This document shows, piece by piece, positions 3,794-63,062 of a stretch of DNA of 64,000 nt. The notes under the pieces are model-generated. The model ran no database searches. It saw only the letters and a list, made by a program, of their open reading frames with translations, and was not told where the DNA came from. Position 1 is the first letter of the stretch. Each line of letters opens with the position of its first letter. Source of the stretch: Thermodesulfobacteriota bacterium (lineage in GTDB: Bacteria; Desulfobacterota; BSN033; UBA1163); the NCBI GenBank assembly GCA_041947025.1, contig JBHGBJ010000006.1, positions 5,995 to 69,994 of the forward strand, written 5' to 3'. The translations under genes were made by a program, and so were the position numbers.

Positions 3794-3873
3794 GCGACCC
3801 TCCTGTTTCTTTCCTTTTCGATTACCGTTTCACGATTTAGAAATCGCAAACTGCAAATCGCAAATCGTCAGAG

Positions 3874-4860
3874 CTATCTCGATATCCTTAACCCCACTCC
3901 CTTGAGCTGGGCCTCGACCTCTTCCAAGGTGGACCAGTTGAAGTCCGTGGGCACGGTGTGCTTAAGGGCGGCAAAGGCGTTTCCGTACTGGACGCCTTTT
4001 TGAACGTCTTTTTCCTTCAGCCAGGCATAGAGAAATCCGGCAGTAAAGGAGTCTCCTGCCCCCACCCTGTCCACAATCTCAACGTCGTACTTCCTGTCTT
4101 TGAAAATCTTTCCATCCTGGTAGGCAATGGCTGTCCAGTTGTTCCTCCAAACCGAAAGGTCTTCTCTTAGCGTGATCGCTACTACTTTCAATTTGAAGGT
4201 CTGGGCAAGCTTCGTCGCTGCAGCCTCATAGTCTTTCTCCTTGATTCCAAAAACCACATTGGTATCTTCCTCGGTTGTGATCAGGATGTCAACGTCGGCC
4301 ATCATCGGTTCTTGAATCTTCTTGGCCTCAGCGGGCGTCCAGAGTTTCTTACGGTAATTAAGGTCGTAAGAGACGCTGCATCCTGCTTCTTTCGCTGCCT
4401 TTAGGGCTTGCGCGGTGACCTCTGCTGCCGATGAGCTCAGGGCAGGGGTGATGCCGCTCATATGGAAATGCTTTGACCCGGCGAAGACCCTTGTCCAATC
4501 GACCTCACCGGGTTTGATCATGCTGATCGAGGAACCCGCCCTGTCATAGAGGACACTCGAAGCACGGGGCGATGCGCCGAGCTCTAAGAAGTAGAGGCCA
4601 GCCCTTCCTTGGTCAGACCAGACAATGTGGGAGCAATCGACTCCAAGCCCCCGGGCACGGTCACGGATAAAATAACCAAGAGGATTCTTAGGGAGCTTAG
4701 AAACCCAGGCACTCTTCAGTCCCAAACGGCTCACGCCAACAGCCACATTGAGTTCGGCTCCGCCAGCACTGACATCGAGACTATGAGTCTGCTCCAACCT
4801 CAAAAAATGAGGAGGTGAAAGCCTTACCATTGCTTCTCCAAAAGTGACAACGTCGTACAT
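3874..4860 (-). CDS. kdgK: 2-dehydro-3-deoxygluconokinase (PfkB family sugar kinase)
   Basis: 328 aa; N-terminal VVTFGEAMVRL, C-terminal DRVGAGDSFTAGFLYA (PfkB signature 2); immediately downstream of KduD-like/IclR and upstream of eda. Confidence 0.8.
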   Translation of the reverse strand: MYDVVTFGEAMVRLSPPHFLRLEQTHSLDVSAGGAELNVAVGVSRLGLKSAWVSKLPKNPLGYFIRDRARGLGVDCSHIVWSDQGRAGLYFLELGASPRASSVLYDRAGSSISMIKPGEVDWTRVFAGSKHFHMSGITPALSSSAAEVTAQALKAAKEAGCSVSYDLNYRKKLWTPAEAKKIQEPMMADVDILITTEEDTNVVFGIKEKDYEAAATKLAQTFKLKVVAITLREDLSVWRNNWTAIAYQDGKIFKDRKYDVEIVDRVGAGDSFTAGFLYAWLKEKDVQKGVQYGNAFAALKHTVPTDFNWSTLEEVEAQLKGVGLRISR

Positions 4861-4861
4861 C

Positions 4862-5524
4862 TTATTCTCCTTTTCTCAGTTCTATACGCATCCCTTTTTC
4901 TGCGGATGCATAGGCCGCGTAAATCACCTCCACCACATCCCTTGCCAAATCGATTCCGGAAACAGGCTCCCGGTCCAATAGAACCGCATCGATGAAATCC
5001 TCCAATTCCTGAGGAAACCCTTTCATCCAGTCATCGTCGGGGCTGGGAAAGTTCCAGCCCGCCTTCGTTTCGAGCCTCTCCGCGATATATTCCTCTCCAA
5101 AGATAGGAGGTTCGGGTGCATAAACCTCCAAAACGTCGTGAGGATTGATCTTGACATATACCACCGAATTCGATAGGAAGACGCTGAGGAGATTTCTCAC
5201 CCCTCCCAAAACGGTGTCCGAAGCGAAGACGGTTGCGTTTGAACCGTCTTCGCCAGCCTCTGCAGCATCGATGGAGAACTTCCCATGGAGATCGGTCGGG
5301 ACACACAGATCGACAATATCGATGTCAGGCCGCTCAAGGATGCGGCGATAGTCGTCATAGGAGTGTGGGATATTGAATTTCTTTGCGAAGGACTCGGCAT
5401 TCTCTTTCTTTTGAGATGCCACCTCAACGACATCCACCTTTAAGCCTCTCAGCTTCGAAAGATTGCTGAGGTGAAGGCTGGCAGCAACTTTCGAACCGAC
5501 GATTCCAAGCCTCACTTTATCCAT
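4862..5524 (-). CDS. Gfo/Idh/MocA-like oxidoreductase, apparently internally deleted (220 aa)
   Basis: N-terminus MDKVRLGIVGSKVAASLHLSNLSKLRGLKVDVVEVASQ...IVDLCVPTDLH is a Gfo/Idh/MocA Rossmann start; C-terminus ...ARDVVEVIYAAYASAEKGMRIEL is the typical family ending; ~120 aa of the usual middle (EKP.. catalytic region) is missing. Confidence 0.45.
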   Translation of the reverse strand: MDKVRLGIVGSKVAASLHLSNLSKLRGLKVDVVEVASQKKENAESFAKKFNIPHSYDDYRRILERPDIDIVDLCVPTDLHGKFSIDAAEAGEDGSNATVFASDTVLGGVRNLLSVFLSNSVVYVKINPHDVLEVYAPEPPIFGEEYIAERLETKAGWNFPSPDDDWMKGFPQELEDFIDAVLLDREPVSGIDLARDVVEVIYAAYASAEKGMRIELRKGE

Positions 5525-5828
5525 CTCTCTTGGACCCCTTCTCTCCGATCACTTCATATACCTGAACCGTGCTCTCGGTATAGAGGGCCTTGATCTTAGG
5601 TGAGAGGGTTTTATGGTCTGGTGAATCCCTCCAAGCAGCAGCCGTCTCGAGGGATTGAAACCGGATCACCATCTGGTAAACAGATCCTTTCCCCTGTTCT
5701 TTGAGGAGCGACACCGAGACGAATCCAGGCTGTCTTGACATGGCCACACTATAAACTTCTTTAAACAGGGCTTCAAACTCCTTCTCCTTGCCAGGAATGA
5801 CATTATAGGTAACATGCCTTTCGATCAT
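5517..5828 (-). CDS. antibiotic-biosynthesis-monooxygenase (ABM/Dabb) domain protein
   Basis: 103 aa; MIERHVTYNVIPGKEKEFEALFKEV...FVSVSLLKEQ...YQMVIRFQSLETAAAWRDSPDHK: ferredoxin-like ABM fold pattern. Overlaps downstream gene start by 8 bp. Confidence 0.55.
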   Translation of the reverse strand: MIERHVTYNVIPGKEKEFEALFKEVYSVAMSRQPGFVSVSLLKEQGKGSVYQMVIRFQSLETAAAWRDSPDHKTLSPKIKALYTESTVQVYEVIGEKGSKRDG

Positions 5829-5903
5829 TATCTAAGTCTCCTTCCCCCCTCACCTTTCCCCTCTCCCCACTGGGGAGAGGGAAGGGTGAGGGGAAATTTC
5901 GCT

Positions 5904-9041: not shown

Positions 9042-9128
9042 GGTGTTCCCTCCTTTCTTAACTTTGAACCATGAACGATGAATGACAAGCCTTAATCCCT
9101 CCTTTACTGTCTTACTCCGAACTCCGAA

Positions 9129-10640
9129 CTAAAACCTCCCTCCTTTCTTAGATGTTTTGATAATGATTCGAACCAATGGGATGAGTAGAAAGATGACAGT
9201 CGCAAGAAGAAAGACCATGGAGACAGGTCGATTGATAAAGATCCCAAAGTCGCCGTGGGAGATCATCAGGGATTGACGGAAGGCCACCTCCAATTTCGGG
9301 CCGAGGACTAATGCCAAGAGTAGTGGAGCAGCCTCGTAAGCCCATTTTCTCATCAAAAATCCGAGACCCCCGAAGAGAAGCATCATCCAGATATCGAAAA
9401 CGGAATTATTCACGGTGTACATCCCCGTGATGCAGAAAAGGATGACGAGAGGCAAGAGGATCTTCTTGGGAATTCTCAGGATGTTGGCAAAGAGAGGAAC
9501 AAAGGGAAGATTAAGAATCAGGAGGATAAAGTTGCCGATATACATGCTGGCGATCACGCCCCAGAAGAGTTCTGGGTGTTGCCCAATTAACAACGGACCA
9601 GGATTGACTCCGTGGATGAGAAGGGCACCCAGAAGAATAGCCGTTGGAGGAGCGAAAGGGATTCCAAGGACAAAGAGGGGAATGAAGGCAGATTGGCAGG
9701 CAGAGTTATTGGCCGATTCAGGACCGGCCACTCCCTCTATCGCCCCTTTGCCAAATTCCTCCGGCTTCTTGGAAATCTTTCTTTCAACCATATAAGAGGA
9801 GTAGGTTGCAATGACAGGAGCAGGCCCCGGTATAAGACCGATCCCGAATCCGATTCCCGAACCTCTCAGAATGGGGCCGATGGATCTCCTGACATCCTGA
9901 AGGGTAGGATAAAGTTCTCTCAAACGGGGTACGAGAACATGTTGTTCCAACATCTCCAATGGCTGATCGACATTGAGTAAGACTTCTCCAATCCCGAAGA
10001 GTCCGATGGCCACAGCCACGAATTCAATCCCTCCCAAAAGCGAGATGGAGCCAAAGGTCAACCGGGCATCTCCGGTCACCGGATCGATTCCGATGGTCCC
10101 GATGATCAAACCGATGACTGCCATCATGAGGGATTTGGTGAGGGATGTCCCTGTGACATTACTCAAGACAATAAACCCAAAGACCATCAGAGAAAAATAT
10201 TCCGGGGGACCAAAGGCGAGTGCTGCCTCTGCCAAGGGCGGGGCCAAGAAAACCAATCCAAATATTCCAATCGTTCCTGCGATGAAAGAACCAATAGCAC
10301 AGGTGGCAAGGGCCGGGCCGGCCCTTCCTTTCTGGGCCATTTGATAGCCATCGATGCAGGTAATCACCGAAGCGGTTTCGCCAGGGACGTTGAGGAGAAT
10401 AGAGGTTGTAGAGCCCCCATACATCGCCCCGTAATAGATTCCAGCAAGCATGATGATCGCAGAGGTGGGATTGAGACCAAAGGTGGCTGGGATGAGGAGG
10501 GCGATCCCGGCGATCGGCCCGAGCCCAGGGAGAACGCCGATCAATGTCCCGACAATGGCGCCAATCAAGCAATAGAGAAGGTTCTGAATCGTCGTAGCGA
10601 TCCCAAAACCGTTGAGAAGATGCTGAAATGATTCAAACAT
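9129..10640 (-). CDS. tctA: tripartite tricarboxylate transporter large permease
   Basis: ~503 aa polytopic membrane protein; MFESFQHLLNGFGIATTIQNLLYCLIGAIVGTLIGVLPGLGP... TctA signature. Start set to ATG 10640, 26 bp after tctB stop; ORF-track extension would overlap tctB. Confidence 0.85.
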   Translation of the reverse strand: MFESFQHLLNGFGIATTIQNLLYCLIGAIVGTLIGVLPGLGPIAGIALLIPATFGLNPTSAIIMLAGIYYGAMYGGSTTSILLNVPGETASVITCIDGYQMAQKGRAGPALATCAIGSFIAGTIGIFGLVFLAPPLAEAALAFGPPEYFSLMVFGFIVLSNVTGTSLTKSLMMAVIGLIIGTIGIDPVTGDARLTFGSISLLGGIEFVAVAIGLFGIGEVLLNVDQPLEMLEQHVLVPRLRELYPTLQDVRRSIGPILRGSGIGFGIGLIPGPAPVIATYSSYMVERKISKKPEEFGKGAIEGVAGPESANNSACQSAFIPLFVLGIPFAPPTAILLGALLIHGVNPGPLLIGQHPELFWGVIASMYIGNFILLILNLPFVPLFANILRIPKKILLPLVILFCITGMYTVNNSVFDIWMMLLFGGLGFLMRKWAYEAAPLLLALVLGPKLEVAFRQSLMISHGDFGIFINRPVSMVFLLATVIFLLIPLVRIIIKTSKKGGRF

Positions 10641-10666: not shown

Positions 10667-11134
10667 CTAAATCCCAATCCACCCCTTGGGGAGAGGAATT
10701 TTGAGCCACTGAACGAATAGAAAATAACAAGCCAAGGCGGTCAGAAGGGACAGAAGAAGATTGAAGGACCATCGCTTCGTCCCAAGGATTCTCAGGAGGC
10801 CGACCATGAGAAGAAAGGAGACGACCGGGTATCCCAGACGGTTTAAAAAGAGGGTCGCCAATACCATCATTCCGAAAAAGAGAATCATCTGTTTTGTGGA
10901 TCCAGAAATCTCTGGGATGGGAACTTTTTTCTCAACCCTCTTCTTGTCGAGGGAGAGCTGAAGCAAAAAGATCCCGGACAAAACCATCAGGAGCATGCCG
11001 AGAATGAGAGGAAAGAAGCCGGTCCCCGATTTACGGAATGTTCCAATGGGCATTCTTAGAGAGAGAAGGGTTGTAATCGCTCCAAAGACAAGGACCACAA
11101 CTCCCCCAATCATTTCGTCCCTTTTCAATTGCAT
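10667..11134 (-). CDS. tctB: tripartite tricarboxylate transporter small permease
   Basis: 155 aa, 4 predicted TM helices, positioned immediately upstream of tctA. Confidence 0.65.
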   Translation of the reverse strand: MQLKRDEMIGGVVVLVFGAITTLLSLRMPIGTFRKSGTGFFPLILGMLLMVLSGIFLLQLSLDKKRVEKKVPIPEISGSTKQMILFFGMMVLATLFLNRLGYPVVSFLLMVGLLRILGTKRWSFNLLLSLLTALACYFLFVQWLKIPLPKGWIGI

Positions 11135-11183
11135 TCCCTTTCAGGTTGTAACTGCTAACTGATCATTGCCAATCGATTATTTT

Positions 11184-11927: not shown

Positions 11928-11978
11928 TGGTTTACTCCAAACCATCAACTTTGGACAATGAACGATGAACTCTAAATT

Positions 11979-12830
11979 CTAAACTCTCAACTCTAAACCC
12001 CCGGGCTTGTGTCCGTTCCTTTTTCGAAATCCAAGCCTCTGGGAGATTTTGGACGCAGTCTCCATAACCTCCTTCTTTAAAGATTCTTGAATGATCTTTT
12101 TCGTCACTCGAAAAGCCGGGCCGGAAATGCTAATAGCAGCCACCACTCGGGAAGCCTCATTAAAAATGGGAGCAGCCACGCATCGGATCCCTCTTTCATT
12201 CTCCTCGTCATCGATAGCAAATCCTTGTTTCCTTACAAACCTTAGGTGTTCTCTCAATTGGACGGGGTCGGTCATGGTGTTTTCAGTTCTTCTCATGAGA
12301 TTTTTCCCCTCCAAGAACTGGTCGAGGACCTCATCGGAGAAATCGGCCAAAAGCACCTTCCCTACGGCACAACTGTGGATTGGGTTCCGAAGGCCAACCC
12401 GGGAGGCCATCCTTAAGCCCCCTGGGTTTTGATCGACCTCGACTTTATCAATGTAAACCACCTCATCTCGATCCATGACAACCATATGGACGGTCTCATT
12501 CGTTCGTTTGACAAGATCCCTGAGAAAGGGCTCGGCCTCTTTTCGGAGGTCGAGTTGGCCGAGAAGAAGGTTTCCGAGTTCGACCAGCTTAAAGCCCAAA
12601 AAATAATCCCTGGTCTTAGAGTCTTGTCTCACATAACCGAAGTGGAGGAGGGAGGAGAGGAGACGATGGATCGTGCCCTTGGGGAGATTGACTCTGGAAG
12701 AGAGTTCGCGGATGCTTATCCCTTGGGGACTCTGTCCAAGGATGTCGAGGATCTGGGATGCCCTTTCAATCGTCTGAACAAGATTTTGAGACTTAGAATT
12801 TCGAACCTGATTTCTGTCCGTATTATTCAT
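11979..12830 (-). CDS. IclR-family transcriptional regulator (KdgR-like)
   Basis: N-terminal wHTH (LVQTIERASQILDILG...GISIRELSSRVNLPKGTIHRLL) + C-terminal IclR effector domain; located inside sugar-acid island. Confidence 0.8.
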   Translation of the reverse strand: MNNTDRNQVRNSKSQNLVQTIERASQILDILGQSPQGISIRELSSRVNLPKGTIHRLLSSLLHFGYVRQDSKTRDYFLGFKLVELGNLLLGQLDLRKEAEPFLRDLVKRTNETVHMVVMDRDEVVYIDKVEVDQNPGGLRMASRVGLRNPIHSCAVGKVLLADFSDEVLDQFLEGKNLMRRTENTMTDPVQLREHLRFVRKQGFAIDDEENERGIRCVAAPIFNEASRVVAAISISGPAFRVTKKIIQESLKKEVMETASKISQRLGFRKRNGHKPGGLELRV

Positions 12831-14751: not shown

Positions 14752-14790
14752 CCCTGTCCCTGCCGCCTGCTTCCGGCAGGCAGGGAAGTT
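14752..14790. repeat. REP-like GC-rich palindromic element (CCTGCC..CCGGCAGGCAGG) between dctP and dctQ
   Basis: tccctgtccctgccgcctgcttccggcaggcagggaag; member of a family recurring at 30967, 34399, 34463, 42638, 55366, 61815. Confidence 0.6.
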
Positions 14791-15861: not shown

Positions 15862-15948
15862 ACAGACCCTCCTTTTCATCCTTGTTTCGTATTTCTCTAA
15901 CCTTGAAATTCAACTCGGAACTCATCACCTTCAGTTCTTAACTCCCCA

Positions 15949-15983
15949 CTCCGAACTCCGAACTCCGAACTCCGAACTCCGAA
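15949..15983. repeat. heptanucleotide microsatellite (CTCCGAA)x5, ~90-120 nt upstream of dctP start
   Basis: ctccgaactccgaactccgaactccgaactccgaa; 2-copy version at 9114-9127 upstream of tctC, inverted copies at 48088-48132. Confidence 0.8.
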
Positions 15984-16324
15984 CTGAAAATCACCTCCTT
16001 TCTTAAGGATTTTCCTGATCATTTAAAACAAAATGATTCGCTTCTTTGTTCTTTTGAGCCTAAAACAGGCATTCCGTATTACGAAACGCCGTTTCCTATT
16101 TTATTAAATCCAAAAAAAAAGTCAAGTGTTTTATTTTAGGGCTCTGAAGAACTATTCATTGCTCTGTGATTAGAGATTTTCGAAAAAGATCGGAAATCTC
16201 TCCGTTGGTTTTCTTATTGACGGCGAACCGTTCATCTGCTATGAAGAAAAGTATCGCCTTGCTTCGATCAAAAGATAGATGGCTTTCATCGAGCAGAATG
16301 AAAATAGGCTAATGGAAGGAGGCA

Positions 16325-19987: not shown

Positions 19988-20121
19988 GGGTCGGTCCTTT
20001 CCATCGAAAATTGGTCATAGCATAGTGAACTTTTAAAGAGATGTCAATGATCAGATAAGCCATATGGTTGGATCGTTGAGTTCGTTCGTTCCGCCGAACG
20101 ATCAAAGCGATCCAAACGATA

Positions 20122-21045: not shown

Positions 21046-21143
21046 GAGTCAGCTGAACCAGAGTTTTTTTAGATACCCCGTCCGTAATCCCCCTTGGCCC
21101 CCCTTTATAGAAAGGGAAGGGTGTGTGGGGGGATTTTTGAACT

Positions 21144-42658: not shown

Positions 42659-42719
42659 CCAAATTCAAAACAAATTCCAAATTCAAATTTCTGAATATCT
42701 AAACTCTTGAATTTGGTGG

Positions 42720-46610: not shown

Positions 46611-46709
46611 TCTATTTAGTCTTTTTCGTCTATCTCGTTAACTTAACAAACCAGATAGGCCAGAAGAACCAGACAGACTAGACAAACCAGATAGACCAGA
46701 AAGACGAGA

Positions 46710-48080
46710 ATGTATCGAAAAGGAAAGATTCAGCATATTCATTTTGTGGGCATCGGCGGGATCGGCATGAGTGGCATTGCCGAGGTTCTCCTCAACCTGG
46801 GCTACCACATCACGGGCTCGGATATCAAGGAAACCGAAGTGACCCGAAGGCTGCAAACGCTCGGATGTGAGATCTTCTACGGCCATCGGAAGGAGAATGT
46901 GAAGGAGGTCGATGTGGTCGTGGTCTCCTCTGCGATTCGTCACGAGAATCCGGAGGTGAAAACGGCTGAGGAGAGGCTTATTCCGGTGATCCCGCGGGCG
47001 GAGATGCTTGCGGAGCTGATGCGGATGAAAGTCGGGGTCGCGATTGCGGGCACCCATGGAAAGACGACGACCACTTCCCTTATCGCCACCGTTCTGGGAG
47101 CCGGCGGGCTCGACCCGACCGTGGTGATCGGAGGGAGACTGAACAGCATCGGAAGTAATGCCAGGCTTGGCCAGGGAGATTTCTTGGTGGCTGAGGCTGA
47201 CGAAAGCGACGGCTCTTTCGTCAAACTGATGCCCACCATTGCTGTCGTCACGAATATCGACCCCGAACACCTCGATTACTATCCAGGGATTGAGGAGATC
47301 AAAGAGACCTTTCTCAGTTTCTTAAATAAGATTCCCTTTTTTGGCCTGGCCGTACTCTGCCTGGATCATCCCAATATCCAGAGCCTCATCCCGAGGCTGA
47401 AGAAACGATTCACCACTTATGGATTGACATCCCAGGCGGATTTCCAGGCCAAGGAGATCGAGTTCGAAGGTCTTTCCACGAGCTTTGACGTCCTTCATAA
47501 GAATCGGGAGATCGGCAGATTGAAGCTTCGGATGCCCGGACTCCATAACGTCTATAATTCCTTGGCCACCGTCGCCACAGCCTTTGAGCTGGATATCCCC
47601 TTCCGGGTGATTCAGGAAACGCTCCGTGATTTCAGCGGGATTCAGAGAAGGTTCCAGATCAAAGGAGAGAAGAAGGAGATCCTCATCGTCGATGACTATG
47701 GCCATCATCCGATAGAAATCATGGCAACACTGAAGGCGGCGCGGAGCGGCTGGAAGAGAAGGGTTGTCGTGGTTTTCCAGCCGCACCGTTACTCCCGGAC
47801 CAAGGCCCTTTTCCAAGATTTTCTAACGGCCTTTTACGATGCCGACGTTCTCATCCTCACCGATATCTATCCGGCAGGAGAGGATCGGATCGAAGGAGTA
47901 GAGGCCCGCTCGCTCTTTGAAGGCCTTCGAGAATACGGCCATAAGAATGTGACCTATCTGCCGAATAAGAAGGAGATTGTGGATCATCTCCTTCGAATCC
48001 TTGCCCCGGGAGATCTGGTGATCACCTTGGGAGCCGGTGACATCTGGCAGGTGGCTGATGAGCTGGTGCAACGTTTATGA
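46710..48080 (+). CDS. murC: UDP-N-acetylmuramate--L-alanine ligase
   Basis: 456 aa; [29 protein letters not shown]-loop. Confidence 0.9.
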
Positions 48081-48087
48081 ATTCGGA

Positions 48088-48211
48088 GTTCGGAATGCGG
48101 TATCCCAAATTCGGAATTCGGAGTTCGGAATGCGGAGTGAAAGATTTATATTCCGCATTCTGCGTTCCGCAATCCGCATTTGATAAATTCCGCACTCTGC
48201 ATTCCGCAATA
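48088..48211. repeat. 124-bp imperfect inverted repeat built from TTCGGAAT(G)CGG / CCGCATTCCGAA words (murC-murB spacer)
   Basis: attcggagttcggaatgcggtatcccaaattcggaattcggagttcggaatgcggagtg ... tattccgcattctgcgttccgcaatccgcatttgataaattccgcactctgcattccgcaat. Confidence 0.7.
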
Positions 48212-48213
48212 GA

Positions 48214-49122
48214 ATGATGACAAGGGATTACAAAAAAATGGCCATGGGTTTGATTCATGGAAGAGTTCTTTTCGATGCACCCATGAGGCGGTTCACCTCG
48301 ATGAAGGTGGGCGGTCCTGCGGACAGCCTCCTCTTTCCAAAGGATGTTGCGGAGCTGAGAAGGGTGGCCCGTTATGCCAGGAGGGAGAGGATCCCCGTCT
48401 TGATCTTGGGAAAAGGGACAAACCTGGTCGTGCGGGACAAAGGGGTCCGCGGGTGGGTGATCAGTCTCGCTCAAGGAATGAAAGAGGTTCGGTTGAATGG
48501 AGATGTGGTTGAAGCCGGAGCGGGTCTTTCTCTCCAACGACTGGTCCGGTTTTCAATCGAGAAGGGCCTGACGGGGCTCGAACCCTTCTTCGGCATTCCG
48601 GGGACCGTGGGTGGCGGATTGGCAATGAATGCCGGTGCATGGGGTGCTGAATTGAAGGATATTCTCCTTTCGATCACCTTCATGAATGGGGAGGGAGAAA
48701 TCGTGGAGAGGCCGCGGAAAAAGTTGAGATTCTATTATCGGAGGCTGGCGATCCCATCTTCCTGGATCATTCTCAAAGGACGGTTTCAGTTGAAAAAGGG
48801 AAGAGGAGAGGAGATCCGTGCGCGGATCAAATCATATTCAGAGATGAGAAAGAGAACCCAGCCATTGGATTACCCCAGTGCGGGCTCCATCTTCAAAAAT
48901 CCTCCGGAAGGCCCTGCGGGAAAATGGATTGAGGAAGCGGGACTGAAAGGGTTTAGAATAGGACAGGCCATGGTTTCGGATCGCCATGCCAATTTCATCA
49001 TCAATCTGGGTACGGCCAAGGCCCGCGATGTGATCCATTTGATGGAGTGGGTGGAGAAGAAGGTCTATGAAGAGAAAGGCATCTCCCTTGAAAGGGAGGT
49101 CAGAGTGGTGGGCGAGGCCTGA
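48214..49122 (+). CDS. murB: UDP-N-acetylenolpyruvoylglucosamine reductase
   Basis: 302 aa; FAD-binding PCMH domain (KVGGPADSLLFP...LILGKGTNLVV) and C-terminal MurB domain. Confidence 0.85.
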   Translation: MMTRDYKKMAMGLIHGRVLFDAPMRRFTSMKVGGPADSLLFPKDVAELRRVARYARRERIPVLILGKGTNLVVRDKGVRGWVISLAQGMKEVRLNGDVVEAGAGLSLQRLVRFSIEKGLTGLEPFFGIPGTVGGGLAMNAGAWGAELKDILLSITFMNGEGEIVERPRKKLRFYYRRLAIPSSWIILKGRFQLKKGRGEEIRARIKSYSEMRKRTQPLDYPSAGSIFKNPPEGPAGKWIEEAGLKGFRIGQAMVSDRHANFIINLGTAKARDVIHLMEWVEKKVYEEKGISLEREVRVVGEA

Positions 49123-49150
49123 TACGGAATAAGGGGTTGGCGATCAGTCC

Positions 49151-50083
49151 ATGAATGATCAGTCTCTCAAGAAAAAGAAGATCGGAGTATTAATGGGGGG
49201 CCTCTCCCGGGAGAGAGAGATCTCTCTGAAGACGGGAAAGGCGATCCTGAGAGCTCTTGCCGAAAAGGGATATACGGTTTGCTCCATCGATGTGGATCAA
49301 AACGTTGCCGAGACCTTGATCAAGAAGAGGATCGAATATGCCTTTGTGGCCCTCCATGGACGGTTCGGGGAAGACGGGACTGTTCAGGGAATGCTGGAAT
49401 TAATGAGGGTCCCCTATACCGGATCGGGCGTTTTGGCAAGCGCTTTGGCGATTCATAAGATCATGTCCAAGAAGATCCTTCTTTGCGAAACGATACCCAC
49501 TCCTCCCTTTGAGGTCGTTCAGCGACGGGACCTCGAAAAAGGTTCTCTGAGAAAGATCTCATTACCTCTTCCCCTTGTGATCAAACCCGCAAGGGAGGGT
49601 TCGACGATCGGTATCTCGATTGTACGGACGGAAGAAGACCTGGTCCCTTCCTTAAGAGAGGCGGGCAAATATGACGAAGAGATACTGGTGGAGAAATTTG
49701 TGAAAGGCAAGGAGATCACCGTAGGGATTCTCGAAGACATTCCGCTACCCGTGATCGAGATCGTTCCGAAAGGCGGTTTTTACGATTACCACTCCAAATA
49801 TACAAAAGGGGAGACCCAATATATTATCCCTGCCCGGATTCCGAGAGAAAAGTATCTCCATGCGCAGGAAATGAGCCTCAAGGCCTTTCACGCTCTGGGT
49901 TGTTCGGGTTGTGCGAGAGTGGATTTGATGACCGACGAGAATGACGATTCATTTGTGATCGATATCAACACCATGCCAGGGATGACGGAGACGAGCCTCC
50001 TTCCGAAGGCAGCCAATCATGTCGGGATTTCATTTGAAGACTTAGTCGAGAGGATACTCTTGGGAGCGTCCCTGAAAGCGTGA
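49151..50083 (+). CDS. ddl: D-alanine--D-alanine ligase
   Basis: 310 aa; KIGVLMGGLSREREISLKTG, HGRFGEDGTVQG, ATP-grasp C-terminal. Confidence 0.9.
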   Translation: MNDQSLKKKKIGVLMGGLSREREISLKTGKAILRALAEKGYTVCSIDVDQNVAETLIKKRIEYAFVALHGRFGEDGTVQGMLELMRVPYTGSGVLASALAIHKIMSKKILLCETIPTPPFEVVQRRDLEKGSLRKISLPLPLVIKPAREGSTIGISIVRTEEDLVPSLREAGKYDEEILVEKFVKGKEITVGILEDIPLPVIEIVPKGGFYDYHSKYTKGETQYIIPARIPREKYLHAQEMSLKAFHALGCSGCARVDLMTDENDDSFVIDINTMPGMTETSLLPKAANHVGISFEDLVERILLGASLKA

Positions 50084-50149
50084 AGAGGAATCCCCATTCT
50101 CTCCCTCCGTTTCTAAGGGGGGGTAGGGAGGGGTTAGGCCATTCGTGAT

Positions 50150-50977
50150 ATGGAAGAGATCGCTGTAATCGATCAAGAAAGATTTCTTCGACCCCGGAAA
50201 AAGAGGGAGACGAGAGGGGGAGAAAAATTTCAGAATATTTTGAGGAAAACGGTTCGTATCGCTTTCCAACTCCTGCTCCTCTCCTTCTTCTTCTTCATCG
50301 GTTATCGTGTCTATGTCCATCTTTTAGAAGATCCGTGGTTTCGAGTGAACGAGGTTGAGGTGGAGGGAAACCAAAAAATTTCGCGAGAAACCGTCCTATC
50401 CCTTATCCGGCTCGAGGGTATGCCAAACCTCTTCACCCTCAAGCTGAAAGAAGTGACCAAGCGGTTAGAGGGGCACCCATGGATTGAGCAGGTGAAGGCA
50501 AGAAAGGTTTTCCCCAATAAGATCCGGATCGAGATCGAGGAGAGAAGGCCGATCGCCATCCTTCAATTGGAGGAGCCTTATTATATCGACACCAAAGGGG
50601 TGATCTTTTCTCAAGTGGAAGGCGAAGATACATTTGACTATCCCTTCCTCACGGGATTGACCCTTCGGTCTCTGGAAAAAGATCCCGCGGAGGCGAAGCG
50701 CCTCATCACCAAAGCCCTGGAATTCTTAAGAATGATCCATAAAGAACAGGCCTTTCCCGCAGAGGAGATTTCCGAGATCCATATGGAGAAGGCTTTCGGC
50801 CTTCAGTGTTTCACAAAGGCCGAGGGAATAGAATTGAGAATGGGGTGGGGACAGTTCGGAGAGAAGCTGAGAAGATTGTCCATCATCTGGTCGGACCTTA
50901 AGAAAAGGGGAGTCTCCGTGATTTCGATCGACTGCAGTGATTTGAAGAGGATGGTCGTCAAAAAATCCCCGTCATAG
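50150..50977 (+). CDS. ftsQ: cell division protein FtsQ (POTRA + beta domain)
   Basis: 275 aa; N-terminal TM (IAFQLLLLSFFFFIGY), POTRA segment (FRVNEVEVEGNQKISRETVLSL...), position between ddl and ftsA. Confidence 0.75.
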   Translation: MEEIAVIDQERFLRPRKKRETRGGEKFQNILRKTVRIAFQLLLLSFFFFIGYRVYVHLLEDPWFRVNEVEVEGNQKISRETVLSLIRLEGMPNLFTLKLKEVTKRLEGHPWIEQVKARKVFPNKIRIEIEERRPIAILQLEEPYYIDTKGVIFSQVEGEDTFDYPFLTGLTLRSLEKDPAEAKRLITKALEFLRMIHKEQAFPAEEISEIHMEKAFGLQCFTKAEGIELRMGWGQFGEKLRRLSIIWSDLKKRGVSVISIDCSDLKRMVVKKSPS

Positions 50978-51004
50978 AAGGACGGGGGAGGAGGTGATTA
51001 CGAG

Positions 51005-52231
51005 GTGAGTAAGAAAGATCCGTATGTGGTCGGATTGGACATCGGGACCACAAAAATCTGCACTGTGGTTGGCGAAGTGGAAAACGGCCAGTGCGACATC
51101 ATCGGTCTTGGGACCCATCCTTCAAAGGGGCTGCGAAAGGGCGTGGTCGTCAATATCGAGAGCACGGTCCAATCGATCAAGAAGGCGATCGAAGAAGCGG
51201 AGCTAATGGCAGGGTGTCACATCACCTCCGTCTATGCAGGGATCGCCGGCGGACATATCAAGGGGATTAACAGCCATGGAGTGATCGCAGTTAAGAATCG
51301 AGAAATCGGTCCCAACGAAGTGAAGCGGGTGATCGATGCTGCGAGCGCCGTTGCCATTCCCATGGATCGCGAGGTCATCCATATCATCCCTCAGGAATTC
51401 ATCGTGGATGATCAGGACGGAATCAAGGATCCCGTGGGAATGTCAGGGGTCAGATTGGAGGGAAGGGTCCACATTGTCACGGGCGCGATTACCTCTGCCC
51501 AAAACATCGTCAAATGTGCGAATCGGGCAGGGCTGGATGTGGATGACATTGTTTTGGAACAATTGGGCTCGAGCGAAGCGGTCTTGACTCCCGAAGAGAG
51601 GGACTTGGGAGCGGCCATCATCGACATCGGAGGGGGGACGACGGACCTGATCATCTTTTCCAATGGCTCGATCAAACACACGTCTGTCTTCTCCTTAGCC
51701 GGGAACCACGTTACGAGCGATATCTCGATGGGGCTTCGGACACCCCTGGAGGAGGCGGAGAAGATCAAGATACGCTATGGATGTGCACTCACCTCACTGG
51801 TCCGAAAGGACGAGACGATCGAGGTTCCCAGTGTTGGAGGAAGGGGCCCTCGCGTCCTATCCAGACAGACCCTGGCAGAGATCGTTGAACCCCGGGTCGA
51901 GGAGATCCTGACCTTGGTGCACAACGAGGTGCAAAGGATGGGATACGGGAATCTGATTGCCTCCGGCATCATCCTCACCGGCGGAAGCGTCATCATGGAA
52001 GGCGTGCCTGAGTTGGCCGAACAGATTTTTAACGTCCCTGTCCGAAGGGGGACCCCGATCGGTATCGGGGGGCTGGTCGATTTAGTCAATAGCCCCATTT
52101 ATGCGACAGGGGTGGGCCTGGTCCTCTACGGAAGCAAGAGCAAGGCGCAGAGTCGTTTTAAGGTGGGACAGGGAAACATCTTCACCAAGGTCACCCACCG
52201 GATGAAAGAATGGATCGGTGAATTTTTTTAA
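51005..52231 (+). CDS. ftsA: cell division protein FtsA
   Basis: GTG start after GGAGGAGGTGA; VVGLDIGTTKICTVVGEV... actin-like ATPase, 408 aa. Confidence 0.9.
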   Translation: MSKKDPYVVGLDIGTTKICTVVGEVENGQCDIIGLGTHPSKGLRKGVVVNIESTVQSIKKAIEEAELMAGCHITSVYAGIAGGHIKGINSHGVIAVKNREIGPNEVKRVIDAASAVAIPMDREVIHIIPQEFIVDDQDGIKDPVGMSGVRLEGRVHIVTGAITSAQNIVKCANRAGLDVDDIVLEQLGSSEAVLTPEERDLGAAIIDIGGGTTDLIIFSNGSIKHTSVFSLAGNHVTSDISMGLRTPLEEAEKIKIRYGCALTSLVRKDETIEVPSVGGRGPRVLSRQTLAEIVEPRVEEILTLVHNEVQRMGYGNLIASGIILTGGSVIMEGVPELAEQIFNVPVRRGTPIGIGGLVDLVNSPIYATGVGLVLYGSKSKAQSRFKVGQGNIFTKVTHRMKEWIGEFF

Positions 52232-52338
52232 AAAACAAACGTTCGACGTTAGGATCGTTTAGATGGTTTTGATGGTTTAACAGGATATACGATCTAAACA
52301 AACCAAACGAACTAAACTTTTTCAAGGAGGAGGGTCAT

Positions 52339-53502
52339 ATGATCGAATTCGACGAGAACAAGAATTTGGCCGCCAAGGTCAAGATCATCGGTATCGGAGG
52401 AGGAGGGAATAACGCTCTGAATACGATGATTTCGAGTAACCTCTCTGGAGTCGAGTTCATTGCGGCCAATACCGATGCTCAGGCGCTGGCGGCAAACCTG
52501 GCTCCCATCAAACTGCAGTTAGGAGCCTCACTGACAAAAGGATTGGGAGCCGGGGCCAATCCTGAGGTGGGGAGGAAGGCCGCCCTGGAGGATGTGGAGA
52601 AGATTCGGGAGGTCCTGATGGGCGCGGACATGGTCTTCATCACGGCCGGATTAGGAGGCGGAACAGGCACGGGCGGAGGACCGGTGATCGCCGAAGTGGC
52701 TCGAGAGATGGGTGCCCTTACGGTCGCCATCGTGACCAAGCCTTTCCACTTTGAAGGAAAGAAACGGATGAAACAGGCAGACGAGGGGTTGTCCAATCTG
52801 AAGATGACCGCAGATGCCCTGATCACCATTCCGAATCAACGGCTTCTGAGCGTCAGCGGAAAGACCATGACCTTGCTGGAGGCCTTTAAGAAGGCGGATG
52901 AGATTCTCTATCATGCAGCCAAAGGGATCTCGGACATCATCGTCGGCCATGGGATCATCAATCTGGACTTTGCGGATGTCCGGACCGTCATGGCTGAAAC
53001 GGGTATGGCGTTGATGGGAACGGGGATCGCTGCCGGTGAAAACCGGTCGGTGGAGGCGGCCCAAAGAGCGATATCGAGCCCCCTCTTGGAAGATATCACC
53101 ATCGAAGGGGCCCGGGGCCTTCTCATTAACATTACCGGAGGCCAGAGCATGACGCTCAATGAGATCAATGAAGCCACCACCCTCATCCAAAAGGAAGCCC
53201 ATGAGGAAGCCAATATCATATGGGGTATGGTGATCGACGAAATGATGACAGAGGAGATCCGGGTTACAGTGATCGCGACAGGATTCGGAAAGGCAGAGGA
53301 GAAGAGTGCGTCGCGGTTCAAGAAAGTGGCACCGATTTCCTTCAGCGTGAGAGAGAATAAAGACGTCCCCACCTTCATGAGGAAGGTGAAGGTCAATGAG
53401 CGATTTGACGAGTTGAAATTGAAAGAGCCACTCCCGGAATTCACAATGGAGGATGAAGATCGTTTCGACATTCCAACGTTTCTAAGGAAACAGGCCGACT
53501 GA
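52339..53502 (+). CDS. ftsZ: cell division GTPase FtsZ
   Basis: KIIGIGGGGNNALN, GGGTGTG tubulin signature, conserved C-terminal peptide DIPTFLRK. Confidence 0.95.
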   Translation: MIEFDENKNLAAKVKIIGIGGGGNNALNTMISSNLSGVEFIAANTDAQALAANLAPIKLQLGASLTKGLGAGANPEVGRKAALEDVEKIREVLMGADMVFITAGLGGGTGTGGGPVIAEVAREMGALTVAIVTKPFHFEGKKRMKQADEGLSNLKMTADALITIPNQRLLSVSGKTMTLLEAFKKADEILYHAAKGISDIIVGHGIINLDFADVRTVMAETGMALMGTGIAAGENRSVEAAQRAISSPLLEDITIEGARGLLINITGGQSMTLNEINEATTLIQKEAHEEANIIWGMVIDEMMTEEIRVTVIATGFGKAEEKSASRFKKVAPISFSVRENKDVPTFMRKVKVNERFDELKLKEPLPEFTMEDEDRFDIPTFLRKQAD

Positions 53503-53645
53503 AAGAGCAAGTAATCAGTGGAGTGTGGTCAGCGATCAGCAAGAAACAGTAAGATTATCTACGAGGAGTGAAATTTGTTATAATGGATCGTAGATCTCTT
53601 TTGACAACCGGGAACTGATTACTGACAACTGCTTACTGATAACTT

Positions 53646-55355
53646 ATGACTTCCTGGAAACTGATTCAGAAGGCCAAACGCATTCTCGAGAAAGAGAGAG
53701 GAGCTGTTCAAAAACCCTGGGGCGGGAAAAAAACAATATGTCTTATCTACCCCAACACCTACCATGTGGGAATGTCCAACCTGGGATTTCAGACCGTTTA
53801 TCGACGTCTGAACTCGGAAGACGATATCGTCTGTGAAAGAGCCTTCCTTCTCGATCCCGATGACCTTCGAGAGTATCACAATACCCAGACCCCTCTTTTT
53901 TCACTGGAGTCCCAGAAGCCTCTTTCTGACTTTGATATCTTAGCCTTCTCGATCTCCTTTGAGAACGATTTTCCGAACATTCTCACCCTATTAGACTTAG
54001 CCCACATCCCAATCGAGAGCCGGCTTCGTGAGGAAGCTCACCCGCTGGTGATTGGAGGAGGCGTTGCGACCTTCATAAACCCGGAGCCGATCAGCGAATT
54101 TTTTGACCTCTTTGTCATCGGCGAAGGTGAGGAGGTGATCGGGGAATTCTTAGAGATCTACCGTAACTCCTATTCAGATATTGGGAAAAGAGGGAAGGGC
54201 GCTTTCTTGAGAAAGGTGGGAAAGTTGGAAGGGATTTATGTTCCGAAGTCTTATCATGTGACTTACACCGAGGATGGAAAGATTGAGGCGATGACCCCCG
54301 AAACAGGATTTCCCGGACGGGTCAAGAGGAGGTGGGTTAAGGAGATCGATCGATTTCCAACCCGTTCCATTCTCTTCACCCGGGAGACCGAGTTTAAGGA
54401 GATGGCCTTGGTTGAAGTGAACCGGGGCTGTCCCCGAGGGTGCCGCTTCTGTGCAGCCTGCTTTGTCTACCATCCTTTTCGAAACAGAAGCCTTTCCTTC
54501 CTTGAGAATTTGTCAAAAGAGGGTCTGTCCGAGGAAGACCGAATCGGCCTGACCGGAACAGCAGTGTCCGACTATCCCAATCTTCTCCCCTTATGTCAGG
54601 CCATTCTTTCCCGGGAGGGAAGGATCTCTCTTTCTTCCTTAAGGGTGGATGCCATCACTCCTTCTTTGGTTCAATGTCTGAAAGGGGGCGGGGATCGGAC
54701 CGTGGCGATTGCGCCTGAAGCAGGCTCTGAAAGGCTTCGAAAAGTATTGAAGAAGCCTTATACGGATGAGGAGGTATTGAAAGCGGTCGATACATTGACT
54801 GAGAATGGTCTCTGTCAAATCAAATGCTATTTTCTTATCGGTCTTCCGTCTGAAACCGATGAAGATGTGAGAGCCATTCCCGCTCTTGTCAAAAAGATTC
54901 GTCATCGGATTGTCTCAAATCGAAAGAAGGAGCAGAATCGATGGAAGCTGGTCGTGAGTGTCAATCCCTTTATCCCCAAGCCTGCCACTCCTTTTCAATG
55001 GGCTCCCCTGGAGGATGTGGCTCAATTGAAGAGAAAGTTGAAGGTCATTCAGAGGGAGCTTAAAGGTGAGAAGGGGATAGAGATGATCCACGATCTTCCC
55101 AAATGGGCCTACATTCAGGCTTTGCTTTCAAGGGGAGATCGGAAGGTTGCAAAAATATTGATCGCAACTCATCATTACGAAGGGGATTGGGGCCGGGCCC
55201 TCCGGGAGACGAATATCAACCCTGACTTTTATGTCAATCGAAAGAGGGACCTGAATGAAGTCTTCCCCTGGGATTTCATCGACCATGGAATTTCCAAAGA
55301 AAGGTTGAAGCAAGAGTACCTCAAGGCGATGGAAGAAGCAGGAGTGACCCGATGA
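53646..55355 (+). CDS. B12-binding-domain radical SAM protein
   Basis: 569 aa; N-terminal cobalamin-binding-like domain, radical SAM Cys triad (CPRGCRFCAAC). Confidence 0.75.
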   Translation: MTSWKLIQKAKRILEKERGAVQKPWGGKKTICLIYPNTYHVGMSNLGFQTVYRRLNSEDDIVCERAFLLDPDDLREYHNTQTPLFSLESQKPLSDFDILAFSISFENDFPNILTLLDLAHIPIESRLREEAHPLVIGGGVATFINPEPISEFFDLFVIGEGEEVIGEFLEIYRNSYSDIGKRGKGAFLRKVGKLEGIYVPKSYHVTYTEDGKIEAMTPETGFPGRVKRRWVKEIDRFPTRSILFTRETEFKEMALVEVNRGCPRGCRFCAACFVYHPFRNRSLSFLENLSKEGLSEEDRIGLTGTAVSDYPNLLPLCQAILSREGRISLSSLRVDAITPSLVQCLKGGGDRTVAIAPEAGSERLRKVLKKPYTDEEVLKAVDTLTENGLCQIKCYFLIGLPSETDEDVRAIPALVKKIRHRIVSNRKKEQNRWKLVVSVNPFIPKPATPFQWAPLEDVAQLKRKLKVIQRELKGEKGIEMIHDLPKWAYIQALLSRGDRKVAKILIATHHYEGDWGRALRETNINPDFYVNRKRDLNEVFPWDFIDHGISKERLKQEYLKAMEEAGVTR

Positions 55356-55365: not shown

Positions 55366-55449
55366 AGGCTGAAAGCTCCCGCCTACGCTGAAGCTGCGGC
55401 GGGCAGGCAAAGCTGAAAGCTCCTGCCTGTCCGGTAGGCAGGGGGGATG
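55366..55449. repeat. tandem pair of REP-like palindromic elements
   Basis: ggctgaaagctcccgcctacgctgaagctgcggcgggcaggcaaa + gctgaaagctcctgcctgtccggtaggcaggggggatga. Confidence 0.6.
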
Positions 55450-61644: not shown

Positions 61645-61814
61645 GTGACTCTCCTGGCTTAAAGTTTGTCCGGATATCAGGGTATCCGTTGGAGGGATAT
61701 CAGAATATCAGAACGCCAGGCTTAACAACCTCTTATTCTTGGACCTTTCCTGATATCTGATACCTCGTATCCCGCCTGTTGATTTCCTGGTATCCTGATT
61801 CCCTCTTCTGATTT

Positions 61815-61846
61815 CGCCTGCCTGCGCCTGCTCGCCGGCAGGTGCC
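61815..61846. repeat. REP-like palindromic element
   Basis: cgcctgcctgcgcctgctcgccggcaggtgcc. Confidence 0.5.
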
Positions 61847-61917
61847 TCGAATTCAGGAATCATATACCACAGGCTACTCTTCTGTTGCAAGGGAGATGTG
61901 GCATATGATAAAATTTT

Positions 61918-62949
61918 ATGATGAAATGCAACTTGATCAAGCAGGGATATCCCCAGGGGAGTTGTTACACGGAGACCGAGGGAGGGAAGTCTCTCGCGTG
62001 CGAAGCGACGCTCAAACAGACCGATGCTGGTCCCCTCAGGCTGATTTCAGCCATTCATCTTTCTCGTCCGGAAAATTACCTCTCTGTCTACCAATCAGGA
62101 TGTAACTTCTCCTGTCGAAAATGTCACTCTTGGACCTTTACGAAGGTCGCCAAAGGGGATTGGTGGTCACCGGCAGATGTGCTGAAGGCCTGTAAGGAGT
62201 ATGATCGGGAGGTCACCCTTCGAGAACCACGGAACAGAGCCACTTCTTTTCATGGCCACGATGCCTGCCGTTGTTGTGGGTCCTGTGTGATGTATGGAAG
62301 ACGATCCTCCCTCTGCCCCAAGGCCATCCAGAAGAAGGACATTCTTTTGAGCCCTCAGGGATGGGGGCCCGCTCGGAATATTGTGGCCTTCACAGGTGGG
62401 GATCTTACCTGTTGCCCGGACTATTATATTAAATGTACCCGTCTGATTAAGGCAGAGACCGATCTCTGGGTGCTGATCGAGACGAATGGCTACGGCCTCA
62501 CCCCTCAGAACCTCGACGCCTTGAAGGAGGCGGGAGTCGATTCCTTCTGGCTCGATATCAAGGCCTACGACGGGACAGATCATAAATGGTGGACCGGGTG
62601 TTTCAATCGAAACATTCTGAAACTACCGGAGGAGATTCTCAAAAGAGGTTTTGTCCTGGAAGTGCTCTCCCTCTATGTCCCGAACTTGGTGGAAACCCCT
62701 CAATTGAAAAAGATTGCCCAATTGATCTTTGATCTTGATCCGGACATCCCGTTCACGATTTTGGCCTTTTTCCCCGAATATCAGATGAAGCGATACAAGA
62801 GCCCCAAGATTTCTGAGATGGTGGGAGCCTTTCTCGAAGTTAAGAAGATCGGATTGCGAAATGTCAGACTTGGGAATGCCGGAATCTTTGCTTCCTCCGA
62901 GGAGGATCAGGTCTTTCTGAGAAAGAAGGTGGGGACGGGGAATTACTGA
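61918..62949 (+). CDS. radical SAM protein (CxxxCxxC, with additional Cys cluster)
   Basis: SGCNFSCRKCHSW radical SAM triad; second cluster CRCCGSC; ~340 aa; true start may be downstream of ORF-track ATG. Confidence 0.65.
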   Translation: MMKCNLIKQGYPQGSCYTETEGGKSLACEATLKQTDAGPLRLISAIHLSRPENYLSVYQSGCNFSCRKCHSWTFTKVAKGDWWSPADVLKACKEYDREVTLREPRNRATSFHGHDACRCCGSCVMYGRRSSLCPKAIQKKDILLSPQGWGPARNIVAFTGGDLTCCPDYYIKCTRLIKAETDLWVLIETNGYGLTPQNLDALKEAGVDSFWLDIKAYDGTDHKWWTGCFNRNILKLPEEILKRGFVLEVLSLYVPNLVETPQLKKIAQLIFDLDPDIPFTILAFFPEYQMKRYKSPKISEMVGAFLEVKKIGLRNVRLGNAGIFASSEEDQVFLRKKVGTGNY

Positions 62950-63062
62950 TTTTGGATTTCAGATTTCAAATGGCAGATTGAAGGAAGATGCGGAGATTTG
63001 ACCCGGAATTTTCAATCTTAAATCTGAAATCTCAGATCTGAAATTGAAGAGGAGGGATGAAA

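Follow-up and report, generated by a model that had tools for sequence, protein, structure and literature searches.

The stretch of DNA considered here, which we call the window, comprises 64,000 nt of contig JBHGBJ010000006.1 (assembly GCA_041947025.1, positions 5,995 to 69,994) from a Thermodesulfobacteriota bacterium. It contains a dcw cluster that includes mraZ, rsmH, mraY, murD, ftsW, murG, murC, murB, ftsA and ftsZ, followed by a gene for a radical SAM protein (PF19864+PF04055), and many of its spacers, within this cluster and outside it, consist of short words repeated head to tail, often facing an array of the reverse-complementary word. An earlier note, made from the sequence alone, had described these elements as hairpins built from words of 6-9 nt, had found that no known class fits them and had proposed an organism-specific rule for building spacer hairpins. 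We find that the repeats are real, that their dominant unit is 7 nt, and that they belong to a known class of intergenic repeats, present with different words at the same gene junctions in related genomes.

Arrays and hairpins in the window

Read directly, the spacers carry degenerate tandem repeats at every place pointed out in the earlier note. With spacers defined by a greedy open reading frame (ORF) map, Tandem Repeats Finder (TRF) reports 16 arrays in 6,235 nt of spacer, where 100 dinucleotide shuffles yield 1.39 +/- 1.23 and never more than 5, so that the comparison with shuffled controls proposed in that note places the excess far above chance. Coding DNA has 19 arrays in 57,618 nt, that is, 0.33/kb against 2.6/kb in the spacers. 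What the range of 6-9 nt had missed is the predominance of a single unit size: 12 array groups have period 7, and a few loci have units of 8 or 9 nt (Table 1). Threshold-free autocorrelation of the spacers is likewise highest at lag 7, where it reaches 0.310 compared with ~0.26 in the background and 0.246 in coding DNA, with echoes at lags 14 and 21. One 23-nt array stretch (9060-9082) recurs at 11947-11969 (91%) and 35219-35241 (83%), forming repeat family D8. As a separate observation, two unrelated spacers have 63 nt in common at 75% identity (9114-9176 and 15969-16031, family D9), and this stretch carries on the minus strand a Shine-Dalgarno-like motif, AAGAAAGGAGG, followed by TTCGGAG repeats.

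Do these arrays fold? Each of the 13 intervals in which a hairpin had been proposed was folded as RNA, and its minimum free energy (MFE) was expressed as a z score relative to 200 dinucleotide shuffles. Inverted repeats with arms 71-93% complementary are present at most of these places, and eight intervals fold into hairpins (z -2.2 to -5.8); for the remaining five the proposal does not hold, since a hairpin is unsupported at 3814-3870 (z -0.4), 3058-3145 (+0.45), 9060-9130 (+0.9) and 11945-12000 (+0.1), and the fold of 35205-35275, at just -7 kcal, is marginal. All five are direct arrays with a single arm, as is 15940-15985, which had escaped attention along with a further word hairpin at 20060-20121. 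Of the 32 spacers in total, 11 fall below a z score of -2, compared with 1 of 32 length-matched coding segments, the 11 including some GC-rich hairpins of another kind. The hairpin between murC and murB (z -6.2 with a second folding tool) is doubled: a 22-nt exact repeat, its copies 35 nt apart, lies on the 5' arm (family D18), and a matching duplication of ~37 nt on the 3' arm was read by eye from the sequence, no repeat search having reported it. In their longest form, the ORFs of murD (42720) and ftsW (44299) start ~29 and 37 codons upstream of the point where the alignment of their orthologues begins, so that the mraY/murD (~243 nt) and murD/ftsW (~247 nt) spacers are longer than the ORF map suggests.

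Table 1. Word arrays, word hairpins and associated features of the window (flanking genes named as upstream/downstream where a spacer separates them; x, number of copies)
Position (strand)	Location	Words and structure	TRF array (period, nt)	Fold
3094-3145 (-)	between KDPG aldolase gene (3143-3793) and LarA-like gene (1753-3057); flanks by Pfam	one-armed heptamer array, TTACTGA-type on + strand, 6.1 copies; no inverted partner	3104-3145, ACTGATT (7)	z +0.45
3819-3870 (-)		AAATCGC, 3.9 copies; two CGATT(T/A) words upstream; weak inverted repeat	3841-3867, AAATCGC (7)	-7.0 kcal, z -0.4
9060-9130 (-)	tctA/tctC	two short one-armed arrays, TGAACGA-type and ACTCCGA x2.4	9114-9130 (7)	z +0.9
11947-11998 (-)	fills 30-nt spacer and overlaps 3' end of IclR-family gene (Pfam)	one-armed, ATGAACG x2 and AACTCTA x4.4	11968-11998 (7)	z +0.1
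15940-15985	divergent region, DctP-family gene/panB	direct AACTCCG x6.6; no real stem	15940-15985, AACTCCG, score 78 (7)	z -1.9
20060-20121 (-)		word hairpin GATCGTT.../...AACGATC, period ~9	20097-20120 (9)	-26.3 kcal, z -5.3
35213-35274 (+)	fills mraZ/rsmH spacer to ATG; no Shine-Dalgarno; Pfam MraZ, MraW	one-armed ACGATGA, 8.9 copies	35213-35274, ACGATGA (7)	
42641-42656	directly before mraY/murD word hairpin	CCTGCC..GGCAGG hairpin		
42650-42740 (+)	mraY/murD	word hairpin CAAATTC/GAATTTG		z -2.9
44150-44240 (+)	murD/ftsW; begins within last murD codons	word hairpin AATGTCA/TGACATT	44208-44231 (7)	-25.5 kcal, z -4.6
46598-46712 (+)	murG stop codon to murC ATG	9-nt-word hairpin GTCTATTTA / ACCAGATAG	46601-46710 (9 and 18)	z -3.8
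48079-48213 (+)	murC stop codon to murB ATG	T[TG]CGGA[ATG] words paired with TCCGCA/TCCGAA	48079-48136 (7)	-55.5 kcal, z -5.8
52245-52322 (+)	ftsA/ftsZ; conserved AAGGAGG Shine-Dalgarno 3' of hairpin	word hairpin GTTTAGATG/CTAAAC	52253-52317 (9)	z -2.6
53510-53540 (+)	starts 7 nt past ftsZ stop codon	5' arm of ftsZ/radical SAM hairpin, AGTAATC-type words		z -2.2 for the bridging hairpin, 53503-53645
53576-53584 (+)	loop of ftsZ/radical SAM hairpin	extended -10-like box TGTTATAAT		
53610-53645 (+)	abuts radical SAM ATG (53646); no Shine-Dalgarno	3' arm GAACTGA TTACTGA CAACTGC TTACTGA TAACTT	53613-53644 (7)	
61668-61800	divergent spacer, Sir2-family gene/radical SAM gene	hairpin GATATCAG/CTGATATC, period 8	61697-61713 (8)	-47.7 kcal, z -4.4
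62941-63050	between convergent genes, overlapping both 3' ends	heptamer hairpin ATTTCAGAT/ATCTGAAAT, 5.1 copies	63014-63048 (7)	z -2.5
14759-14784, 30982-30997, 34401-34426, 42641-42656, 55422-55442, 61817-61842		copies of CCTGCC..GGCAGG hairpin family		

Persistence and turnover among relatives

The best matches of the window MurC (46710-48080), at 83-90% identity, lie in metagenome contigs of the Joint Genome Institute (JGI) and in metagenome-assembled genomes (MAGs) that carry the label Thermodesulfobacteriota, "uncultured Syntrophaceae" or Deltaproteobacteria; the host is thus uncultured and resembles Thermodesulfobacteriota or Syntrophaceae. Loci whose MurC is 80% identical or more, 31 in all, were treated as a clade, and their orthologous dcw-cluster spacers were taken for comparison. 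The same architecture occupies the same dcw-cluster junctions in 30 related contigs, with a word that differs between genomes, and the comparison with relatives thereby does away with the idea of an organism-specific rule. Across the 382 kb of the clade there are 30.9 period-7 arrays per 100 kb, against 3.9 of period 6 and 7.6 of period 8, and the dcw spacers of the relatives reach an autocorrelation of 0.407 at lag 7; the other 130 loci of our collection have 5.2 period-7 arrays per 100 kb. Carriers outside the clade belong to Methylomirabilota (L036, L038, L051, L073), Candidatus Binatia (L027), Geobacteraceae (L033) and other MAGs (L008, L026), the Methylomirabilota locus L051 having hairpins at the same murG/murC and murC/murB junctions, and similar words (nACTGA, TTCGGAG, AACGGTG, ATTCCAA) recur across unrelated phyla. 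Heptamer arrays are absent from the close relative L004 (MurC 85%), whose spacers are mostly short. The only contig encoding an identical MurC, a Logan contig from SRR29307520, is 100% identical to window positions 44315-54080 (9.8 kb) and therefore gives no copy-number information on polymorphism between strains.

About a third of the heptamer arrays are accompanied by their own reverse complement, which lets a single strand fold into a long imperfect hairpin. Defining an inverted partner as two consecutive reverse-complement units (a 14-mer) with at most 2 mismatches within 160 nt, we found one for 40 of the 118 clade arrays, compared with a separate direct partner for 5 and a partner in a control window 1 kb away for 1; outside the clade the figures are 29 of 90 inverted and 3 of 90 direct. 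A test allowing one mismatch per 7-mer was discarded as too lenient (79 inverted and 48 direct of 118) in favor of the 14-mer test. The 118 arrays comprise 60 distinct canonical heptamers, and no one word, or few words, could serve as a genome-wide consensus in the 64 kb of the window's genome that were covered.

How, then, do the two arms and their words change over time? The word differs among genomes, and an arm is a closer match to its partner in the same genome than to the arms of other genomes: at seven junctions, mean pairing scores are 22-30 for arms in cis and 13-22 in trans, with 0 to 13 of 5000 permutations per junction reaching the cis mean. We compared cis with trans pairing in place of column-wise covariation because stem registers differ between genomes. 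At murC/murB, a hairpin of T[TG]CGGA[ATG] words with TCCGCA or TCCGAA recurs in ~20 clade members, ranging in length from 46 nt (L100) to 133 nt (the window), and the window's murG/murC hairpin has homologues of the form GTTTNTTTA/AAACCAGA in L001, L087, L092, L095 and L103. Between pairs of loci that are 89-92% identical (L002/L107, L088/L090, L092/L095), single spacer indels measure 7, 8 and 8 nt, which is close to the length of a unit, and in two cases an entire word hairpin has been replaced by one with a different word (murC/murB of L002 versus L107; murD/ftsW of L092 versus L095) while the neighboring spacers remain ~90% identical. Some hairpins bear extra palindromic inserts at their apex (murC/murB of L085, L097, L098 and L103; murG/murC of L002 and L084), among them tgtcatgctgaacttggttcagcatctc-type and CCCTGAACC..GGTTCAGGG-type sequences, and the apex seems to be an insertion hot spot.

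Turnover of words contrasts with persistence of the stem. In ten "type A" genomes the ends of the murC/murB spacer have a mean pairwise identity of 0.76 (first 28 nt) and 0.72 (last 42 nt) in MAFFT alignments, in which low-complexity sequence may inflate the values somewhat, compared with 0.40 at fourfold-degenerate sites of the adjacent murC; alignment was preferred to an ungapped comparison of spacer ends because register shifts made the latter misleading. The best stem scores above the 95th percentile of shuffles in 74 of 133 clade spacers of 40-200 nt, and stems enclosing at least 80% of the spacer make up 31%, against 9% in shuffles. At murC/murB the stem follows the stop codon after a median of 1 nt, and the start codon follows the stem after 9 nt; at ftsZ/radical SAM these medians are 9 nt and 3 nt, respectively. 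In the repeat-free L004, the region after the ftsZ stop codon still pairs with the radical SAM start region (-34.9 kcal, z -3.6). The radical SAM gene follows ftsZ in those clade loci that reach past ftsZ, and in all 12 (the window and 11 relatives) the loop of the spacer between them holds a TGnTAnAnT box flanked by arms built from six different word families, which implies a predicted promoter of the gene's own. A simple consensus scan of 42-57 kb gave no enrichment of promoters and missed the window's version of this box because the -35 region there is weak.

Other repeats occur alongside the word arrays. The CCTGCC-N(2-14)-GGCAGG hairpins, REP-like in look (repetitive extragenic palindrome), number 6 in the window against 0.04 expected; several adjoin word arrays or sit within them, and the family is also present in L082, L084, L085, L092 and L130. 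A further kind of hairpin combines C-runs and G-runs (CCCCTCACC..CCCTCTCCCC / GGGGAGAGGG..GGGTGAGGGG) at 5844-5893, ~21090-21135, 38490-38530 and 50090-50135, the interval 5829-5903 folding with z -5.9; such hairpins lie in the murG/murC spacers of L002, L082, L088 and L101, in some relatives replacing the word hairpin there. Just upstream of mraZ (34768), a period-10 repeat of AAGTGGTAAA (2.9 copies, 34709-34737) resembles the direct-repeat operator of MraZ, GTGG[GT], and likely has that known function, apart from the heptamers. Two regions in which the greedy map has no ORF of 90 aa or longer (10773-11183, 411 nt; 27754-28232, 479 nt) may hold small genes or pseudogenes.

Relation to known repeat classes

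Heptamer repeats were described in 1990 and then again in several phyla. The window arrays share the features of this class, being tandem head-to-tail heptamers that lie between genes and exceed other unit sizes, and the arrays of this lineage are accordingly members of a known repeat class, of which we found no earlier description in this lineage; the belief that no known class fits them has to be given up. Heptameric simple sequence repeats (SSRs) are over-represented in many bacterial genomes, and slippage related to the polymerase footprint has been hypothesized as their source (Mrazek 2007, as cited in PMC4692102). In Calothrix and Nostoc, STRRs (short tandemly repeated repetitive sequences) consist of 7-bp repeats, and STRR hairpins have been noted between hupS and hupL, with transcript stability or translational coupling offered as untested ideas (PMC2670836); a Nostoc preprint reports modest reporter effects upon deleting heptamers beside start codons. 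Common to STRRs and the window are tandem 7-nt intergenic units, several words per genome, hairpins inside operons and heptamers beside start codons, whereas the host phylum differs and positional conservation with word turnover is documented here across ~30 genomes. The window words are presumably unlike the STRR1-3 consensus sequences, and a narrow definition of STRRs, by those consensus sequences and by a heterocystous cyanobacterial host, does not extend to them.

Paired arrays have been reported in two further groups. Xanthomonas genomes each have 70-75 convergent pairs of GGGAATC arrays with potential stem-loops (Rehm et al. 2015, PMC4692102), situated at the same gene junctions across species and variable in length (PMC4692102). 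The window likewise has intergenic heptamer arrays and inverted pairs kept at gene junctions with varying length, but Xanthomonas uses one G-rich word with G-quadruplex potential, whereas here there are dozens of mostly AT-rich words, most without G-tracts. In Geobacter metallireducens, tandem arrays are paired across the two strands (Aklujkar et al. 2009, PMC2700814), 24 of the pairs having octanucleotide, 21 nonanucleotide and 8 heptanucleotide units; they occupy such spacers as that of proB and proA, and the authors of the study read them as IHF/HU-type sites (PMC2700814). Its pairs resemble ours in having 3-5 tandem words of 7-9 nt on opposite strands with variable spacing at operon junctions, and its MTYCTGA word is similar to the window's ATCTGA and TACTGA words; its three or four word classes have 8-24 pairs each, and the words here are more diverse. 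As in both groups, a reverse-complement array lies close by on the other strand in our paired arrays. Direct TAACTGA repeats abut start codons in Beggiatoaceae and also occur in cyanobacteria and Bacteroidetes (MacGregor 2015, PMC4679880); that study put forward Csp, S1 and CsrA as the proteins that bind them and suggested a translation role (PMC4679880). In the same manner, heptamer direct repeats end a few nucleotides from a start codon in the window, where forward arrays do so at 53610-53645 (followed by ATG), 35213-35274, 46648-46709 and 48150-48213. A single word dominates in Beggiatoaceae, however, and inverted pairs are rare there (1 of 170), whereas exact TAACTGA is neither enriched nor tandem in the window (5 scattered occurrences against 4.0 expected), with just one-mismatch variants at 53610-53645. 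None of these repeat studies establishes a function.

Other classes of intergenic element fit less well, as the earlier note had rightly held for REPs, MITEs (miniature inverted-repeat transposable elements) and canonical terminators. Enterobacterial REPs and bacterial interspersed mosaic elements (BIMEs) are intercistronic imperfect palindromes without U-tracts that can stabilize upstream mRNA segments; REPs follow a single consensus, of which there are hundreds of copies, and are connected with REP-associated tyrosine transposases (RAYTs). The window hairpins are also intercistronic imperfect palindromes without U-tracts, but they consist of tandem words and have no consensus in common, as REPs or REPINs (REP doublets forming hairpins) would, the longest matches between spacers being 23 nt and 63 nt (75%). 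Terminal inverted repeats, target-site duplications and near-identical copies, as expected of MITEs, were not seen in the window, and length differences among relatives are unit-sized. Rfam covariance models at gathering score gave 0 matches on both strands of the 64 kb, and a tRNA scan found nothing.

Origin and possible roles of the arrays

What could produce arrays that exchange their words so readily and yet keep their places? We lean, with moderate confidence, towards the view that the window elements as a whole are intergenic 7-nt microsatellites (a few of 8-9 nt) of the same kind as STRRs, the GGGAATC arrays of Xanthomonas and the arrays of G. metallireducens, in which copying between arms and retention of the stem complement array growth. 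Replication slippage of 7-nt units would make arrays grow and shrink, as the unit-sized indels and copy-number differences suggest. Complementarity of the arms would be renewed by copying from one to the other, through template switching or arm-to-arm conversion, and their joint change would then be concerted evolution as opposed to base-by-base compensatory selection; three findings point in this direction, namely, that the arms covary at the level of whole words, that G-U pairs are not favored, and that the window murC/murB hairpin is duplicated on both arms. With less certainty, the conserved stem base, its persistent position and the L004 stem without repeats suggest that selection may retain, at operon junctions, a stem that typically stretches from the stop codon of one gene to the start codon of the next, or close to it.

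On a polycistronic mRNA, such an intercistronic stem would protect the upstream 3' end and would mask or couple translation initiation at the downstream gene, where a Shine-Dalgarno sequence is often missing: this is so for five of the seven window genes with an array at most 30 nt upstream (rsmH, murC, murB, the radical SAM gene and a short-chain dehydrogenase gene), and strong Shine-Dalgarno sequences are used elsewhere in the window. Where an array has one arm only, the spacer or leader would be unstructured. At ftsZ/radical SAM both states might occur, since a transcript from the predicted loop promoter would carry the 3' arm alone as an unstructured leader and read-through transcripts would fold. 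The sequence patterns described above make it plausible, though they do not prove, that the RNA acts in mRNA stability or translational coupling.

Several observations weigh against this explanation. Functional RNA stems normally favor G-U pairs, and yet the stems here show no wobble excess on the sense strand: those scoring at least 24, by a score that treats G-U and A-C mismatches alike, comprise 2201 Watson-Crick pairs, 166 G-U, 152 A-C and 268 transversion mismatches, so that only ~79% of positions are Watson-Crick. There is no consistent arm polarity, the 5' arm being GT-rich in 46 of 77 hairpins. The arrays must be dispensable because they are missing from the close relative L004, and the Shine-Dalgarno comparison involves small numbers (7 genes). 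Slippage and arm-to-arm copying are themselves deduced from patterns, and neither accounts for why units of 7 nt so clearly outnumber those of 6 or 8 nt.

Much of this would sit comfortably with a neutral origin, in which slippage of heptamers and inverted duplication yield arrays that are tolerated in spacers and whose hairpins are inert. We regard this as a strong competitor, albeit a clearly less probable one. Degenerate stems with G-U about equal to A-C, the lack of arm polarity, the 60 words among 118 arrays, the rapid turnover by which spacers are replaced between 92%-identical loci and the loss of arrays in L004 are all in its favor. Harder to reconcile with inert hairpins are the base of the murC/murB stem, ~0.75 identical where fourfold sites have fallen to 0.40, the recurrence of hairpins at the same junctions throughout the clade and in Methylomirabilota, the excess over shuffles (31% vs 9%) of stems enclosing at least 80% of the spacer, and the stop-to-start stem that L004 has kept without repeats.

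Might the arrays instead be binding sites for a trans-acting protein, either on DNA (IHF/HU-like) or on RNA or single-stranded DNA (the OB-fold proteins Csp and S1, with a footprint of ~7 nt, or CsrA)? The 7-nt unit equals the footprint of CspB, the authors of the Geobacter study took paired arrays for regulator sites, the arrays abut start codons without Shine-Dalgarno sequences, GGA motifs abound in the murC/murB 5' arm, and deletion of heptamers affected reporters in Nostoc. A single sequence-specific factor is nevertheless unlikely because there are 60 distinct canonical heptamers among the 118 arrays; replacement of the word at a fixed junction and the lack of enrichment of exact TAACTGA (5 vs 4 expected) speak against binding sites as well, no candidate factor was identified, and we consider this origin improbable.

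We hold a similarly low opinion of miniature mobile elements (MITE-, REPIN- or SDR-like, the last being small dispersed repeats) that insert into spacers and into each other. Cassette-like replacement of spacers between close relatives, the 23-nt array at three spacers and the 63-nt stretch at 75% (D8, D9), the window murC/murB hairpin that resembles a copy nested within itself and the other palindromic inserts at hairpin apices of relatives are what such elements might leave behind. They would also be expected to have terminal inverted repeats, target duplications and long near-identical copies, none of which we observed, and copy number shifts here by single units; no transposase is linked to the arrays or was found among the 20 of ~55 window genes scanned against Pfam, the search for one in the window not being exhaustive. 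A related and equally doubtful idea is that some dedicated machinery passed on horizontally, be it an enzyme or a very small mobile element, writes 7-nt arrays and their inverted copies into spacers, which would account for the preference for 7 over 6 or 8 nt, for similar words in unrelated phyla, for the hairpin swaps at one junction between 92%-identical genomes and for the 23-nt array in three spacers. Least probable are ordinary Rho-independent terminators, because even though stems begin right after stop codons, one hairpin (62941-63050) lies between convergent genes and one stem (44194-44220) has a T-rich tail, that stem is the only terminator-like site to coincide with a word hairpin and the only one to fit the pattern of GC-rich stem plus U-tract, such sites are not enriched in 42-57 kb (24 vs 17.8 +/- 4.4 expected), and most stems are AT-rich, have no U-tract and lie inside the conserved dcw operon.

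The value of the heptamer arrays described here lies in a comparative set of ~30 genomes with shared operon junctions (murG/murC, murC/murB, ftsA/ftsZ and ftsZ/radical SAM), at which the stem persists and its base is conserved as the word turns over and both arms change together, and in which one relative, L004, has lost the repeats and kept the stem. Two ideas thereby become directly testable, namely, concerted evolution of the arms by copying and an effect of a stop-to-start stem on the stability of the mRNA or on translational coupling. Functional stems would represent a widespread means of operon punctuation; if the stems have no function, they would be a clean example of structured junk that renews itself.

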